Assembly (NCBI RefSeq): GCF_013315695.1
Contig: NZ_CP054353.1
Reading direction: 5' to 3' (one strand)
Length of the DNA stretch: 64,000 nt
DNA from: Escherichia coli
GTDB taxonomy: Bacteria; Pseudomonadota; Gammaproteobacteria; Enterobacterales; Enterobacteriaceae
Numbering within the stretch: the stretch's first letter is position 1; the number at the start of each line of letters is the position of its first letter. This document shows, in pieces, positions 2,728-9,123 of this stretch. The notes beneath the pieces were generated by a model, which did not search any database, was not told the DNA's origin, and was given only the letters and a program-made list of their open reading frames with translations. A program made the translations under genes and the position numbers.

Positions 2728-2905
2728 ATCGTATTCCCATTTGTAATAGACAAAAAAAAGAGAAAAGTAAGCCGCCCTTTCAGGTGGATTACTTTTCTCA
2801 GGTCTCTAGTAATTGCAATAAGAAATAACATGGAAAGCAGTGGTGTTGTGTGAGAGTAGTCACGCTTCTGCTTTTTAAAATTATTTGATAATACGAATAT
2901 CACAC

Positions 2906-2921: not shown

Positions 2922-2974
2922 TTAGCGCTTATGCCCTTATGCTAAAAATTATATCCAGTTACCAGAGATAATGA

Positions 2975-3022
2975 GAAAGGTAACTTCCCTCTCGCGGGGG
3001 AAGTTACCTTTCTTTTTTTTTT
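2975..3022 (+). terminator. Strong intrinsic terminator/attenuator hairpin 25 nt upstream of the ygcW start codon
   Basis: Perfect 15-bp stem GAAAGGTAACTTCCC / GGGAAGTTACCTTTC (2975-2989 and 2998-3012) with an 8-nt loop, followed by a run of 10 T (3013-3022). Upstream AGTTACC (2957-2963) could pair with GGTAACT in the 5' arm as an antiterminator. Confidence 0.5.
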
Positions 3023-3046: not shown

Positions 3047-3832
3047 ATGTCAATCGAATCTCTCAATGCGTTCTCAATGGATTTTTTCTCCCTGAAAGGT
3101 AAAACAGCAATTGTTACCGGCGGGAATAGCGGTTTAGGCCAGGCATTTGCCATGGCGTTGGCCAAAGCTGGCGCAAATGTCTTTATCCCTAGCTTCGTCA
3201 AAGATAACGGCGAAACAAAGGAAATGATTGAAAAACAGGGTGTCGAAGTTGATTTTATGCAGGTGGATATCACCGCAGAAGGCGCGCCGCAGAAGATTAT
3301 CGCTGCCTGCTGTGAGCGCTTCGGTACCGTAGATATTCTGGTTAACAATGCCGGTATTTGTAAGCTGAATAAGGTGCTGGACTTCGGTCGTGCCGACTGG
3401 GACCCGATGATTGATGTGAACCTGACCGCCGCATTCGAGTTAAGCTACGAAGCGGCAAAAATTATGATCCCGCAGAAAAGCGGTAAAATTATTAATATCT
3501 GTTCATTGTTCTCTTACTTAGGTGGACAATGGTCACCTGCATATTCTGCAACTAAACATGCTCTTGCCGGATTCACCAAAGCTTATTGTGATGAACTAGG
3601 TCAATATAATATTCAGGTAAATGGTATTGCCCCTGGATATTACGCTACCGATATCACCCTGGCGACACGCAGTAATCCAGAAACCAATCAGCGCGTTCTT
3701 GATCATATTCCAGCAAACCGTTGGGGCGATACTCAGGATTTAATGGGCACAGCCATATTTCTCGCAAGTCCGGCATCGAATTATGTCAACGGACATTTAT
3801 TAGTGGTTGATGGCGGTTATTTAGTGCGCTAA
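3047..3832 (+). CDS. ygcW: Short-chain dehydrogenase/reductase (SDR), 261 aa
   Basis: ORF with TGGNSGLG Rossmann motif and YxxxK-type active-site region; start taken at the ATG preceded by a GGAG RBS (MSIESLNAF...). Confidence 0.85.
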   Translation: MSIESLNAFSMDFFSLKGKTAIVTGGNSGLGQAFAMALAKAGANVFIPSFVKDNGETKEMIEKQGVEVDFMQVDITAEGAPQKIIAACCERFGTVDILVNNAGICKLNKVLDFGRADWDPMIDVNLTAAFELSYEAAKIMIPQKSGKIINICSLFSYLGGQWSPAYSATKHALAGFTKAYCDELGQYNIQVNGIAPGYYATDITLATRSNPETNQRVLDHIPANRWGDTQDLMGTAIFLASPASNYVNGHLLVVDGGYLVR

Positions 3833-3901: not shown

Positions 3902-5356
3902 ATGTCTTTATCTCGCGCAGCGATTGTCGACCAGCTAAAGGAAATTGTTGGTGCAGATCGCGTAATTACCGATGAAACAGTATTAAAGAAAAACAGTATT
4001 GACCGTTTTCGCAAATTTCCGGATATTCATGGCATTTATACTTTGCCTATTCCGGCAGCGGTCGTAAAACTCGGTTCCACAGAGCAAGTGTCCCGTGTGC
4101 TGAATTTTATGAATGCGCACAAAATTAACGGTGTGCCGCGTACCGGTGCTTCCGCTACCGAAGGTGGACTGGAAACCGTTGTGGAAAACTCGGTAGTGCT
4201 TGATGGCTCTGCAATGAATCAAATCATTAATATTGATATAGAGAATATGCAGGCGACGGCGCAATGTGGTGTTCCGCTGGAGGTGCTGGAAAACGCGTTG
4301 CGTGAAAAAGGTTACACCACGGGGCATTCACCGCAATCAAAACCGCTGGCGCAGATGGGCGGCCTGGTAGCAACCCGCAGTATCGGGCAGTTCTCCACAC
4401 TCTACGGCGCAATCGAAGATATGGTCGTTGGTCTGGAAGCAGTATTGGCTGATGGCACCGTAACACGTATTAAAAACGTGCCACGCCGCGCGGCTGGCCC
4501 GGACATTCGTCACATTATCATCGGCAACGAAGGTGCATTGTGCTATATCACTGAAGTAACAGTGAAAATCTTTAAGTTCACCCCGGAAAACAACCTCTTC
4601 TACGGCTATATCCTGGAAGATATGAAAACCGGCTTCAACATCCTGCGTGAAATCATGGTGGAAGGGTATCGTCCGTCGATTGCTCGTTTGTATGATGCTG
4701 AAGATGGCACCCAACACTTCACCCATTTTGCCGACGGCAAATGCGTGCTGATCTTTATGGCTGAAGGTAACCTTCGCATTGCGAAGGCGACGGGCGAAGG
4801 GATTGCTGAAATCGTGGCACGTTACCCGCAATGCCAGAGCGTGGACAGCAAGCTGATCGAAACCTGGTTTAACAACCTGAACTGGGGACCGGATAAAGTG
4901 GCTGCCGAACGTGTGCAGATCCTCAAAACCGGCAACATGGGCTTTACCACCGAAGTGTCCGGCTGCTGGAGCTGCATTCACGAAATCTACGAAAGCGTTA
5001 TTAACCGTATTCGTACCGAGTTCCCGCACGCCGACGACATCACCATGCTGGGCGGTCACTCCTCTCATAGCTATCAGAACGGCACCAACATGTACTTCGT
5101 CTACGACTACAACGTCGTTGACTGTAAGCCGGAAGAGGAAATCGACAAGTACCACAATCCGCTCAACAAAATCATCTGCGAAGAAACCATTCGCCTCGGC
5201 GGTTCGATGGTGCACCACCACGGTATTGGTAAACATCGCGTTCACTGGAGCAAACTGGAACACGGCAGCGCGTGGACGTTGCTGGAAGGGCTGAAAAAAC
5301 AGTTCGATCCTAACGGCATTATGAATACGGGTACTATCTATCCGATTGAAAAATAA
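3902..5356 (+). CDS. ygcU: FAD-linked oxidase/dehydrogenase (484 aa)
   Basis: 484-aa ORF with an FAD-binding PCMH-type N-terminal region; RBS AGGAAGG upstream. Confidence 0.85.
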   Translation: MSLSRAAIVDQLKEIVGADRVITDETVLKKNSIDRFRKFPDIHGIYTLPIPAAVVKLGSTEQVSRVLNFMNAHKINGVPRTGASATEGGLETVVENSVVLDGSAMNQIINIDIENMQATAQCGVPLEVLENALREKGYTTGHSPQSKPLAQMGGLVATRSIGQFSTLYGAIEDMVVGLEAVLADGTVTRIKNVPRRAAGPDIRHIIIGNEGALCYITEVTVKIFKFTPENNLFYGYILEDMKTGFNILREIMVEGYRPSIARLYDAEDGTQHFTHFADGKCVLIFMAEGNLRIAKATGEGIAEIVARYPQCQSVDSKLIETWFNNLNWGPDKVAAERVQILKTGNMGFTTEVSGCWSCIHEIYESVINRIRTEFPHADDITMLGGHSSHSYQNGTNMYFVYDYNVVDCKPEEEIDKYHNPLNKIICEETIRLGGSMVHHHGIGKHRVHWSKLEHGSAWTLLEGLKKQFDPNGIMNTGTIYPIEK

Positions 5357-5397
5357 TGTGTGAGGCAGCGTTCCGCGATGACGGGGCGTTGCCTTTT

Positions 5398-5419
5398 CGG
5401 CTTCTCAGGCGAGAAGCCG
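5398..5419 (+). terminator. Intercistronic hairpin between ygcU and ygcS (possible partial terminator)
   Basis: CGGCTTCTC-AGGC-GAGAAGCCG, a 9-bp GC-rich stem followed by TTCTTATT. Confidence 0.3.
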
Positions 5420-5449
5420 TTCTTATTACCGGACAATGAAGGGGTAAAG

Positions 5450-6787
5450 ATGAACACTTCACCGGTGCGAATGGATGATTTACCGCTTAACCGTTTTCAC
5501 TGTCGAATTGCTGCGCTCACTTTCGGCGCGCACCTGACCGACGGTTATGTTCTCGGCGTCATTGGTTACGCCATTATTCAGCTTACGCCCGCCATGCAAC
5601 TGACGCCGTTAATGGCGGGAATGATCGGCGGCTCGGCGCTCCTTGGTTTGTTTCTTGGCAGCCTGGTTCTTGGGTGGATCTCCGACCATATTGGTCGGCA
5701 AAAAATCTTCACCTTCAGCTTTTTGCTGATTACGCTCGCTTCGCTCTTGCAATTTTTTGCCACCACGCCAGAGCATCTTATTGGATTGCGCATTTTGATC
5801 GGCATTGGTCTGGGAGGCGATTACTCAGTCGGTCACACCTTGCTGGCTGAATTTTCCCCGCGCCGCCATCGCGGTATTTTGCTGGGCGCATTCAGTGTGG
5901 TGTGGACCGTAGGCTATGTGCTGGCAAGTATTGCCGGACATCACTTTATTACCGAAAGCCCGGAGGCCTGGCGCTGGCTGCTGGCATCAGCGGCGTTACC
6001 AGCCTTGCTGATTACGCTGCTACGTTGGGGCACGCCGGAATCGCCACGCTGGCTACTGCGCCAGGGGCGTTTTGCAGAAGCTCACGCTATCGTTCATCGC
6101 TATTTTGGCCCGCATGTTTTACTGGGCGATGAAGTGGCAACGGCGACCCATAAACACATCAAAACCTTGTTCTCTTCGCGCTACTGGCGGCGCACAGCGT
6201 TTAACAGCGTCTTCTTTGTCTGCCTCGTAATCCCATGGTTTGTGATTTATACCTGGCTGCCAACTATCGCCCAGACTATTGGACTGGAAGATGCGCTGAC
6301 TGCCAGCCTGATGCTTAATGCGTTGTTAATTGTTGGCGCGCTGCTGGGATTAGTTCTGACGCACCTGCTGGCACATCGCAAGTTTTTGCTGGGAAGTTTT
6401 TTGTTGCTGGCGGCAACGCTGGTAGTGATGGCCTGTTTGCCTTCCGGCAGTTCATTAACGCTGCTGCTTTTTGTTCTCTTCAGCACCACCATTTCGGCAG
6501 TCAGTAATCTGGTGGGCATTTTGCCTGCGGAAAGTTTTCCTACTGACATTCGCTCGCTGGGCGTCGGTTTTGCCACCGCCATGAGTCGGTTGGGGGCGGC
6601 GGTAAGTACTGGCCTGCTGCCGTGGGTGCTGGCGCAGTGGGGAATGCAAGCCACCTTATTGCTCCTGGCGGCAGTGTTGTTGGTTGGTTTTGTTGTGACC
6701 TGGCTATGGGCACCAGAAACCAAAGCACTCCCGCTGGTGGCGGCGGGAAATGTAGGAGGTGCGAATGAACATTCTGTTAGCGTTTAA
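5450..6787 (+). CDS. ygcS: MFS transporter (445 aa)
   Basis: ORF track frame 5360-6787; start placed at the ATG (MNTSPVRMDD...) with a GAAGGGG RBS, downstream of the hairpin; hydrophobic multi-pass protein. Confidence 0.8.
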   Translation: MNTSPVRMDDLPLNRFHCRIAALTFGAHLTDGYVLGVIGYAIIQLTPAMQLTPLMAGMIGGSALLGLFLGSLVLGWISDHIGRQKIFTFSFLLITLASLLQFFATTPEHLIGLRILIGIGLGGDYSVGHTLLAEFSPRRHRGILLGAFSVVWTVGYVLASIAGHHFITESPEAWRWLLASAALPALLITLLRWGTPESPRWLLRQGRFAEAHAIVHRYFGPHVLLGDEVATATHKHIKTLFSSRYWRRTAFNSVFFVCLVIPWFVIYTWLPTIAQTIGLEDALTASLMLNALLIVGALLGLVLTHLLAHRKFLLGSFLLLAATLVVMACLPSGSSLTLLLFVLFSTTISAVSNLVGILPAESFPTDIRSLGVGFATAMSRLGAAVSTGLLPWVLAQWGMQATLLLLAAVLLVGFVVTWLWAPETKALPLVAAGNVGGANEHSVSV

Positions 6788-7544
6788 AGCCGAACCGGAT
6801 GCCGGAATGCTGGCGGAAAAAGAGTGGCAGGCGGCGGCTCAGGGTAATATTGGACCAGATGTTTCGCTACTGCGAAGTTTACTCGGTGCTGATGAACAGG
6901 CTGCCGCCGCGCTGCTGTTGGCGCAGAGAAAAAACGGTACGTCGATGTCTTTAACCGCGTTGAGCATGGGGGATGAACGGGCGTTGCACTGGCTGCGCTA
7001 TCTCATGGCTCTTGGGTTTGAGGACGCTGTATTGCTGGAGACGGTGGCAGATCTGCGCTTTGCGCCGGAATTTGTCGCTCGCCATATTGCCGAATGGCAG
7101 CGTCAGAATCCGCTGGATCTGATAATTACCGGCTGCCAAAGCAGCGAAGGGCAGAATGGGCAAACGCCATTTTTGCTGGCGGAAATGCTGGGCTGGCCCT
7201 GCTTCACCCTGGTGGAGCGTTTTACTCTCGACGCGCCGTTTATCACCCTTGAACAGCGTACTGAACATGGGCTGCGCTGTTACCGGGTTCGCTTGCCTGC
7301 GGTGATTGCCGTGCGCCAGTGTGGTGAAGTGGCCTTGCCAGTACCGGGAATGCGCCAGCGAATGGCTGCGGGGAAAGCAGAAATTATCCGTAAAACTGTT
7401 GCTGTCGAATTGCCAGCGATGCAGTGTCTGCAACTGGCAAGAGCAGAGCAACGACGCGGAGCGACGCTGATTGATGGGCAAACGGTAGCAGAAAAAGCGC
7501 AAAAGCTATGGCAGAACTATTTACGCCAAAGGATGCAGCCATGA
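6765..7544 (+). CDS. ygcR: Electron-transfer flavoprotein beta subunit-like (FixA-like)
   Basis: ORF MNILLAFKAEPD...; overlaps the ygcS stop and the ygcQ start, consistent with translational coupling. Confidence 0.8.
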   Translation: MNILLAFKAEPDAGMLAEKEWQAAAQGNIGPDVSLLRSLLGADEQAAAALLLAQRKNGTSMSLTALSMGDERALHWLRYLMALGFEDAVLLETVADLRFAPEFVARHIAEWQRQNPLDLIITGCQSSEGQNGQTPFLLAEMLGWPCFTLVERFTLDAPFITLEQRTEHGLRCYRVRLPAVIAVRQCGEVALPVPGMRQRMAAGKAEIIRKTVAVELPAMQCLQLARAEQRRGATLIDGQTVAEKAQKLWQNYLRQRMQP

Positions 7545-8401
7545 ATATCGCAATTGTGACAATAAATCAGGAGAATGCCGCAATAGCGAGCTGGCTGGCA
7601 GAACAGGATTTCAGCGGTTGTACCCTGGCACACTGGCAGATTGAACCTCAGCCCGTAGTGGCGGAACAGGTGCTGGATGCGCTGGTGGAACAGTGGCAGC
7701 GAACGCCAGCGGACGTTGTTCTCTTTCCGCCGGGAACGTTTGGTGATGAACTGTCGACACGGCTGGCCTGGCGTTTACATGGTGCAAGCATCTGCCAGGT
7801 GACTTCGTTAGATATTTCAACCGTAAGCGTGCGCAAATCCCACTGGGGAAATGCGCTAACGGCGACGCTGCAAACAGAAAAACGCCCGCTATGCCTTTCC
7901 CTTGCCCGCCAGGCGGGAGCAGTGAAAAACGCCACATTGCCCTCTGGTATGCAGCAACTGAACATTGTCCCCGGCGCACTTCCCGACTGGCTGGTTAGCA
8001 CAGAGGATCTGAAAAATGTTACCCGTGACCCATTAGCTGAGGCCAGACGGGTGCTGGTGGTGGGGCAGGGCGGAGAGGCAGATAACCAGGAAATCGCTAT
8101 GCTGGCAGAAAAGCTGGGAGCCGAAGTGGGCTACAGTCGGGCGCGAGTAATGAACGGTGGCGTTGATGCCGAAAAAGTGATTGGTATTTCCGGACATCTG
8201 CTGGCACCTGAGGTGTGTATTGTTGTTGGCGCTTCTGGCGCAGCAGCGTTAATGGCGGGCGTATGCAATAGCAAGTTTGTGGTGGCGATTAATCATGACG
8301 CCAGCGCAGCGGTATTTTCACAGGCAGATGTTGGCGTGGTTGATGACTGGAAAGTGGTGCTGGAGGCAATGGTGACAAACATTCACGCAGATTGCCAATA
8401 A
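7541..8401 (+). CDS. ygcQ: Electron-transfer flavoprotein alpha subunit-like (FixB-like)
   Basis: ORF MNIAIVTINQ... with a C-terminal ETF-alpha FAD-binding region (GISGHLLAPEVCIVVGASGA). Confidence 0.8.
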   Translation: MNIAIVTINQENAAIASWLAEQDFSGCTLAHWQIEPQPVVAEQVLDALVEQWQRTPADVVLFPPGTFGDELSTRLAWRLHGASICQVTSLDISTVSVRKSHWGNALTATLQTEKRPLCLSLARQAGAVKNATLPSGMQQLNIVPGALPDWLVSTEDLKNVTRDPLAEARRVLVVGQGGEADNQEIAMLAEKLGAEVGYSRARVMNGGVDAEKVIGISGHLLAPEVCIVVGASGAAALMAGVCNSKFVVAINHDASAAVFSQADVGVVDDWKVVLEAMVTNIHADCQ

Positions 8402-8439
8402 CGTGTTGCTGGATGATCCTGCCTACGGTTCTGGCCTGG

Positions 8440-8490
8440 GGACTTGTAGGCCTGATAAGACGCGTCAAGCGTCGCATCAGGCGCTGAATG
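8440..8490. repeat. REP (repetitive extragenic palindromic) element between convergent ygcQ and ygcP
   Basis: GTAGGCCTGATAAGACGCGTCAAGCGTCGCATCAGGCG is the classic enterobacterial REP palindrome. Confidence 0.6.
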
Positions 8491-8547
8491 TCCGATGTGG
8501 CGTACAGCCTACAAATCACACAAATTCAATTCGTTACGATTATCCCG

Positions 8548-9123
8548 TCAAAGCAATTTTTTCGCTAGCGTCCAGACCCCGGTATTCGTGGTGGAAAGCG
8601 CCACGACACCTGCGTTAATCGCATTACGCGCATCTTCTTCATCGCACACCAGCCCGCCAGCAATCAGCGGTTGGCGGATTTTCTCCGTCACCCAGCCCAG
8701 CACTTTGGGCATACAGCCAGGCAGGATCTCAATACAATCCGGATTCGATTGCGCAACTTGCTTATCAATGTTGTGAAACGAAATCGAATCAACAATAAAC
8801 AGGCGATGAATACAGAAAAAACCTTCCGCTCTTGCTGCTTTCAGCATTGAGGCTTTGGTACTGATAATGCCGTCCGCCTCGGTCACCAGTTTCAGAAACT
8901 GAATCACCACTTCTTTGTTCGATGCGCCTTCCAGCAAATCGACATGAATAAAGGCATATTTCCCGGCACTTTTAATCTTTTTGACGATATGACTGATGGT
9001 GCAGATATTGCCGTACAACACGGAAATAAACTGGCATTCAGAGTCGATTGCCAGTTGCAGGCTGGCATTATCTTTAACGGCAGCAATCACCGGATTCTGG
9101 CGGAGCAGGTGTAAGAGGGGCAT
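8548..9123 (-). CDS. ygcP: GlpP-family (glycerol-3-phosphate-responsive type) transcription antiterminator-like protein
   Basis: 191-aa ORF with the conserved SAGKxxFxHVDL region of the GlpP antiterminator family. Confidence 0.8.
   Translation of the reverse strand: MPLLHLLRQNPVIAAVKDNASLQLAIDSECQFISVLYGNICTISHIVKKIKSAGKYAFIHVDLLEGASNKEVVIQFLKLVTEADGIISTKASMLKAARAEGFFCIHRLFIVDSISFHNIDKQVAQSNPDCIEILPGCMPKVLGWVTEKIRQPLIAGGLVCDEEDARNAINAGVVALSTTNTGVWTLAKKLL

Follow-up and report, generated by a model that had tools for sequence, protein, structure and literature searches.

The ygcU-ygcS junction and its two hairpins

The window analyzed here, a stretch of Escherichia coli DNA of 64,000 nucleotides, occurs with 100% identity in several clinical isolates, and its identity to most other genomes is about 98%. 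It contains the ygc cluster, in which yqcE/ygcE on the minus strand is followed by ygcW, ygcU, ygcS, ygcR, and ygcQ on the plus strand and by ygcP, ygcO, and ygcN on the minus strand. The ygcW gene (3047-3832, plus strand) encodes a short-chain dehydrogenase and ygcU (3902-5356, plus strand) an FAD-linked oxidase with the Pfam domains FAD_binding_4 and FAD-oxidase_C; the ygcU reading frame and its TAA stop codon at 5354-5356 are given by both the ORF list and the RefSeq annotation of an identical genome. Read from the K-12-type start, ygcS (5450-6787, plus strand) encodes an MFS transporter of 445 residues, while YgcP matches the family of glycerol-3-phosphate-responsive antiterminators over its full length (PF04309, E = 2.5e-62). 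Our search of the literature on ygcU, ygcS, ygcP, ygcQ, ygcR, ygcN, and ygcO returned nothing on operon structure or on the hairpin described below, nor does the K-12 feature annotation describe it.

From the ygcU stop to the K-12-type ygcS ATG at 5450, the two genes are separated by a gap of 93 nt (5357-5449), and within it lies the hairpin of interest, henceforth hp2 (5398-5419, plus strand), with the arms CGGCTTCTC and GAGAAGCCG enclosing the four-nucleotide loop AGGC. The initial annotation had reported a 9-bp GC-rich stem at these positions, followed by a T-rich tract, in a 93-nt gap before ygcS, and all of this was borne out by the sequence: the stem consists of nine perfect Watson-Crick pairs, six of them G-C, and is followed directly by TTCTTATTAC, which includes a U-rich but interrupted tail at 5420-5428 on the plus strand (TTCTTATTA). 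hp2 sits 41 nt past the ygcU stop on the plus strand, which is the sense strand downstream of the gene, and there is no T tract on its reverse strand. By RNAfold, hp2 alone has a free energy of -14.9 kcal/mol, and its pairs keep probabilities of at least 0.9 when the whole gap is folded.

We asked how often such a hairpin arises by chance. The 93-nt gap as a whole folds at -43 kcal/mol versus -28.7 +/- 3.0 kcal/mol for shuffled sequences (z = -4.8), and perfect hairpins, defined by a stem of at least 9 bp and a loop of 3-8 nt, were counted 10 times (6 distinct) in the 64-kb window versus 1.9 +/- 1.7 times in dinucleotide shuffles. Since perfect hairpins are this rare in the window, only about 0.003 would be expected by chance in a given 93-nt gap, and it is unlikely that hp2 arose there by chance. 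Its stem falls within the range of intrinsic terminators (about 5-14 bp, G-C-rich, with a loop of 3-8 nt), and in a terminator scan of the first 12 kb hp2 ranks third by stem length and G-C content. The tail is further from the type. An intrinsic terminator is expected to have a U tract of about 7-9 nt, uninterrupted or nearly so, directly after the stem, whereas the hp2 tail UUCUUAUUA has six U in eight positions and is broken at positions 3 and 6; a repaired tract would read TTTTTTTT. On a simple tail score, which is not a calibrated model of terminator strength, hp2 reaches 2.94 versus 5.28 for the terminator in the ygcW leader.

The gap also holds a second hairpin, hp1 (5362-5395, plus strand), which the initial annotation did not mention. 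It starts 5 nt past the ygcU stop, ends two nucleotides before hp2, and comprises 14 pairs, including three G-U, with the loop CGATGA and a following UUUU (RNAfold); at -23.1 kcal/mol its fold is stronger than that of hp2. The gap is therefore laid out as hp1 and hp2 in tandem, then the U-rich tail, then the ygcS ribosome-binding site. All Escherichia loci have hp1, and the other genera lack it. We considered that it might have arisen by tandem duplication of an hp2-type hairpin followed by divergence, and rejected this, as local alignments between the two were no better than those of shuffled sequences (best p 0.026-0.06 before correction for 12 comparisons).

Whether the hairpins are coding depends on where ygcS starts. 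RefSeq/PGAP places the start in some genomes at an in-frame ATG at 5378-5380 on the plus strand, within the hp1 loop, and does so in an identical genome, giving a product of 469 residues (WP_001571781.1), while the K-12 start is the ATG 72 nt further downstream, at 5450, giving 445 residues. The latter is preceded by a Shine-Dalgarno sequence, GAAGGGG at 5438-5444 on the plus strand as read from the sequence, 5 nt before the ATG, which is kept as ATGAAGGGGTA in Escherichia, Citrobacter, Klebsiella, and Yokenella. Alignments with YgcS orthologues from other genera begin at residue 1 of the 445-residue form, and the ygcU-ygcS gaps in other genera, at 52-64 nt, are too short for the extension that a start at 5378 implies. 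The Shine-Dalgarno sequence and the orthologues thus favor 5450, and the start at 5378 is probably wrong. We therefore discarded the idea that hp2 is ygcS coding sequence: because the orthologues start at the equivalent of 5450, without the extension, and the gaps lack the room for it, we take both hairpins to be non-coding.

Elsewhere in the cluster, the convergent ygcQ/ygcP gap contains a match at 8449-8522 to the Rfam family naRNA4 that stays below threshold (31.9 bits versus a gathering score of 59.5); this naRNA4-like, REP-derived match is probably a REP element. The Term-seq tables of Adams et al. include a 3' end that falls 84 nt into ygcN (about 10579 in the window, minus strand; K-12 2892741, plus strand), together with a region of Rho termination at K-12 2893051, a possible sign that transcription of the ygcN-O-P operon ends prematurely.

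Conservation of hp2 in Enterobacteriaceae

To place hp2 in an evolutionary context, we scanned representative genomes with YgcU and obtained 67 loci. An orthologue of hp2 occurs at the same place in 34 Enterobacteriaceae loci, from genera that include Escherichia, Citrobacter, Klebsiella, Raoultella, Superficieibacter, Yokenella, Pluralibacter, Mixta, Cedecea, and Buttiauxella, and in all 34 the G-C core ends 19-32 nt before the ygcS ATG. Pairing is kept despite sequence drift, as in the stems GGCTTCTC/GAGAAGCC, GGCTCCTC/GAGGAGCC, GGCTTTTC/GGAAAGCC, TGGCTTCC/GGAAGCCA, GGTCGGCTC/GAGCCGACC, and GTGCGGTCTC/GAGGCCGCAC. In a MAFFT alignment of 33 distinct sequences covering 11 stem pairs (alignment A3), 86.8% of cells pair and both sides have changed in nine of the 11 pairs; the observed covariation score was matched by none of 500 shuffles, and control structures slid by one to three columns scored far lower. 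The hp2 stem is maintained in evolution by compensatory change, and hp2 is not a chance hairpin.

The tails range from U8 to poor. At least five T are found in the 8 nt after the core in 28 of the 34 loci, and several of these, for example L013, L015, and L016, have the T6-T8 runs of textbook terminators; in Citrobacter sedlakii the arrangement is GGTGGCTTCCCGCTCGGGAAGCCAC-TTTTTTT. In some species the hairpin is kept with a poor tail (L008, CGACTTTA; L010, CCTTTACC; L011, ACAATTTT). Among more distant Enterobacterales, Serratia, Rahnella, Limnobaculum, and Budvicia also have a G-C-rich hairpin shortly past the ygcU stop followed by a longer spacer, and where ygcS-R-Q is absent altogether (Erwinia, Pantoea, and some Serratia) ordinary end-of-operon terminator hairpins follow ygcU.

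Outside Escherichia, the hp2 orthologue lies 5-15 nt after the ygcU stop, except in four loci with insertions (L006, L008, L010, and L055). Large structured insertions of 120-200 nt lie between the ygcU stop and the conserved hairpin in several genera, at 6456-6590 in L006, 6456-6660 in L010, and 6456-6580 in L055, and are ERIC-like by eye; an insertion at 3689-3750 in C. koseri (L008) contains a 13-bp palindrome. Several genera seem to share a hot spot for insertions between the ygcU stop and the hairpin. The set of loci also includes an Enterobacteriaceae-type ygc cluster in a "Planctomycetota MAG" (L004) and in "Chryseobacterium sp. 18061" (L025), with YgcU identities to E. coli of 99% and 89%, respectively; these are most likely the result of contamination or mis-binning.

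The gap itself is not a dispersed repeat. For a 131-nt query spanning it, the number of matching places per E. coli genome had a median of one and a maximum of three, and no Rfam family is found at the gap. On these two grounds we rejected the possibility that hp2 is a REP/BIME, ERIC, or box C repeat or a member of a known RNA family.

The ygcW and yqcE leader elements and antitermination

The cluster contains a GlpP-family protein, YgcP, and the initial annotation had raised the possibility that hp2 is a second antitermination target. On this reading YgcP would act at hp2 as well, and ygcS-R-Q would be induced together with, or apart from, ygcW-ygcU. Candidates for what YgcP might recognize are two strongly conserved elements in the divergent region between ygcW and yqcE. 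The ygcW leader element (2956-3022, plus strand) consists of a terminator and an overlapping alternative hairpin, and the yqcE leader element (2752-2815, minus strand) is its mirror image and belongs to the same family; a covariance model of the whole element built from 82 copies (R1) scores them at 84.6 and 79 bits, respectively. Each element has a long terminator, GAGAAARGTAAC...GTTACYTTTCTC, followed by a run of 8-10 T. An alternative 6-bp hairpin, with the arms RTTACY and RGTAAY around the loop AGAGA-N-UGAGAAA, precedes and overlaps this terminator, its 3' arm being shared with the terminator 5' arm.

A pattern search found 96 copies of the leader element in related loci, 82 of which were distinct and were aligned. 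The alternative hairpin covaries (GUUACC/GGUAAC versus AUUACU/AGUAAU versus GUUGCC/GGCGAC), and none of 500 shuffles reached the observed score. The element is present in five Firmicute or other loci with a YgcP homologue (L053, L059, L066, L067, and L068) and absent from seven loci without one (L052, L057, L058, and L061-L064). In K-12, RNA 3' ends map in vivo to both leaders, at 2900311 on the minus strand for ygcW (40,640 reads, intrinsic-terminator score 15.8) and at 2900556 on the plus strand for yqcE (score 11.4), and Rho dependence is seen for neither of them (Adams et al., 2021, PMC7815308, supplementary files 1 and 3). The known targets of GlpP are terminators in leaders adjoining a promoter (PMC9604022), and the layout of the two leaders is that expected of a GlpP-type system. 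The leader elements are probably the RNA target of YgcP. No Rfam family matches them, and we found no published description of them; within this locus we regard them as more interesting than hp2.

Between the divergent leaders lie two CRP-like sites of the form TGTGA-N6-TCACA, at 2849-2864 (one mismatch) and 2906-2921 (none), in agreement with CRP sites for yqcE and ygcW predicted earlier by PhyloScan (PMC1794230). In five Bacillaceae loci that have neither ygcP nor the leader element (L057, L058, and L061-L063), repeated palindromes of the GAAAATTTTCC type occur about 100-200 nt upstream of ygcW, which suggests that a DNA-binding repressor replaces the antiterminator there.

With R1 and a second model of the leader 5' hairpin (R2), we searched for further copies of the element. 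Over the whole window with filters off, R1 and R2 matched only 2956-3022 (plus strand) and 2752-2815 (minus strand); R1 gave no match at 5357-5449 with filters off and E up to 10, and the best R2 score at the ygcU-ygcS junction was 1.0 bit (E = 3.8 in 131 nt). A local search with R1 returned no plus-strand match to hp2 and only -3.3 bits on the minus strand. Across the 67 loci (745 kb), R1 matched upstream of ygcW or yqcE or of Firmicutes operon genes, and never downstream of ygcU. Because neither model gives a match at the junction, we rejected hp2 as a copy of the ygcW/yqcE leader element; the likely YgcP target has no second copy there. We also noted that the hp2 orthologues share a core, CTTCYC-N4-GRGAAG, with the apical stem in the ygcW leader; in the window this pattern has a single match, hp2 itself, and we consider the resemblance coincidental, since R1 includes this stem and still misses hp2.

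A switch of the leader type would also need an alternative partner for the hp2 stem. When the hp2 3' arm is held unpaired, however, the 5' arm finds only four weak pairs, inside the ygcU coding sequence, so that an antiterminator fold competing with hp2 was rejected for want of a substantial partner. The sequence TTACC-N12-GGTAA (5426-5447), downstream of hp2, has a superficial likeness to the leader alternative hairpin, but it is no match to the leader element, and it lies past the terminator and is therefore unable to compete with the hp2 stem. Moreover, hp2 is intercistronic rather than located in a 5' leader near a promoter, where the reported GlpP targets are found (PMC9604022). Against these results stand the presence in the cluster of a gene for a full-length PF04309 protein and the terminator-like form of hp2, which must be read through. 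The proposal of a second antitermination target, which found neither a model match at the junction nor an antiterminator pairing for the 5' arm, is thus highly improbable, and hp2 looks constitutive rather than switch-like.

Proposed partial termination at hp2 and its rivals

We favor, with a probability of roughly 0.55, the reading that hp2 is a leaky intrinsic terminator, serving also as a protective 3' hairpin, that holds ygcS-R-Q below ygcW-ygcU. hp2 and its U-rich tail would form an intrinsic (Rho-independent) terminator-type hairpin within a ygcW-ygcU-ygcS-ygcR-ygcQ transcription unit. RNA polymerase starting from the ygcW promoter and passing the regulated leader terminator would reach hp2 41 nt after the ygcU stop; some transcripts would end in the UUCUUAUU tract, with 3' ends expected at 5420-5428, and leave the ygcW-ygcU mRNA with a hairpin protecting its 3' end, and the remaining polymerases would read through into ygcS-R-Q, which would have no promoter of its own. 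hp2 would in this way fix the expression of the accessory genes, for the transporter and the electron-transfer flavoprotein, at a lower level than that of the core dehydrogenase genes.

Several results are consistent with this reading. A consensus scan of the plus strand from 4028 to 8980 found no sigma-70-like promoter; since there is no promoter-like site and the ATG follows the hairpin after only 19-32 nt in most species, ygcS should be transcribed only through hp2. Because the E. coli tail is interrupted and scores below the leader terminator, a fraction of polymerases should pass, and the interrupted tail fits partial rather than full termination. The end-of-operon terminators found where ygcS-R-Q is missing fit the idea that hp2 is the ygcW-ygcU terminator, kept inside the operon. 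The initial annotation had proposed a partial terminator that sets differential expression within the operon: the anatomy of hp2, its fixed position before ygcS, its covarying conservation, and its mostly T-rich tails speak for this, whereas termination at hp2, its partial nature, and the effect on expression ratios are what we infer from them. In K-12 the junction corresponds to 2897871-2897963 and hp2 to 2897901-2897922 on the minus strand, and the Term-seq tables of Adams et al. (2021; LB and M63) list no 3' end between 2892741 and 2900311; because the transcripts already end at the ygcW leader, with 40,640 reads at 2900311, these data are uninformative for the junction rather than negative. 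The TERMITe supplements contain no ygc entries.

The main rival to a leaky terminator is a role in RNA stability or processing, which we consider unlikely: hp2, together with hp1 in Escherichia, would barely stop RNA polymerase and would instead block 3'-to-5' exonucleases, so that after endonucleolytic cleavage the ygcW-ygcU segment would be stabilized relative to ygcS-R-Q. The two stable tandem hairpins of Escherichia are in keeping with such a barrier, as is the retention of the hairpin with a poor U tract in L008, L010, and L011, where it may be retained for something besides termination. By contrast, a pure exonuclease barrier has no need of the T-rich tail seen in 28 of the 34 loci, and hp2 is single-copy, belongs to no Rfam family, and is not a REP-type repeat. 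A stability role is in any case compatible with that of a terminator and usually accompanies it. Control at the level of translation, in which the U-rich tail, or the CCUUUU on the 3' side of hp1 in Escherichia, would pair with GAAGGGG and limit ygcS translation, is very unlikely. Minimum free energy folds do pair UUACC (5426-5430) with GGUAA (5443-5447) at a probability of about 0.9, and GCCUUUU pairs with the Shine-Dalgarno region if the first 10-16 nt past the stop are kept unpaired. Across 33 loci, however, the mean predicted accessibility of the Shine-Dalgarno sequence is 0.38 versus 0.39 with the tail shuffled, so that the pairing is what any U-rich tail beside a purine-rich site would give; it also shows no covariation, the paired columns being invariant in the clade that has them. 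Sequestration of the Shine-Dalgarno sequence by the tail, being no stronger than in the shuffled-tail controls, was therefore set aside.

The position of the hairpin in other genera raises the further possibility, to our minds quite doubtful, of a ribosome-gated terminator. In most genera a ribosome finishing ygcU would cover the 5' arm and suppress termination, so that read-through into ygcS-R-Q would report ygcU translation and the accessory module would be licensed only when ygcU is translated; in Escherichia, the insertion of hp1 would have moved hp2 out of reach of the ribosome and taken the ribosome-proximal position, with a weakening of the U tract. For the other genera the reading has its appeal: the distance from the stop to the hairpin core is at most 12 nt in 22 of the 34 loci, and the tR2 terminator, with an efficiency of less than 10% when placed 5 nt from a stop codon, rises to a plateau of about 90% beyond 30 nt, repression being nearly complete at 5-9 nt (Li et al., 2016, PMC4824070). 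A ribosome is expected to occlude a hairpin within about 10-15 nt of the stop, but hp2 lies at 41 nt in the window, as in all Escherichia loci, and gating cannot act on it there. The short gap elsewhere may simply reflect compact gene spacing. Nor did we retain a trade-off in which hairpins far from the stop have weaker tails, since the difference in mean tail score (2.0 versus 2.9) is only a trend (one-sided p = 0.12, five independent insertion events).

Should hp2 prove to be a leaky terminator, transcription of the ygc cluster would be controlled at two levels: at the leader, by a regulated terminator that is probably under the control of YgcP, with CRP-like sites behind it, and inside the operon, by a fixed valve that would hold expression of the transporter and electron-transfer-flavoprotein genes lower than that of the dehydrogenase genes. 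This would be useful for expressing or de-orphaning an unstudied catabolic cluster, although the general view of gene regulation is unchanged by hp2. The analysis also flags a start codon of ygcS that is likely mis-set in many RefSeq E. coli genomes. The negative result on antitermination is the more valuable by-product, as it gives a sharper picture of the YgcP-associated RNA element and of its distribution, both where it is found and where it is not.

Among known systems, the GlpP-controlled leader terminators of Bacillus subtilis glpD, glpFK, and glpTQ (cited in PMC9604022) resemble hp2 in that it is terminator-shaped and lies in a cluster with a GlpP-family protein. Unlike the ygcW and yqcE leaders, however, hp2 has no RTTACY-AGAGA-N-UGAGAAA-RGTAAY hairpin overlapping the terminator, no U8-10 run, and no match to R1 or R2. 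Intercistronic REP hairpins in malE-malF stabilize the upstream mRNA segment, and hp2, likewise stable and intercistronic, could protect upstream mRNA in the same manner; unlike REP/BIME hairpins, it occurs in a single copy in E. coli genomes, lacks the REP consensus, and belongs to no Rfam family. With its core no more than 12 nt from the ygcU stop in 22 of 34 loci, the hp2 family is also akin to stop-proximal terminators such as the tR2 constructs and the pyrBI attenuator, a stop-proximal terminator repressed by the ribosome (cited in PMC4824070), whereas the 41 nt found in E. coli lie beyond the range of about 30 nt over which repression was measured for tR2.

Classical partial terminators of E. 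coli are the rplL-rpoB attenuator and T1 in rpsU-dnaG-rpoD. Partial terminators between the genes of an operon are a recognized class (Li et al., 2016, PMC4824070), with which hp2 shares a G-C-rich hairpin and U-rich tail on the sense strand between co-oriented genes, an imperfect tail, and a downstream gene without a promoter; it differs from them in that Escherichia has a second hairpin, hp1, in front of it. Of the known classes, partial intrinsic terminators inside an operon come closest to hp2, which has their structure and a U tract that conforms only weakly.
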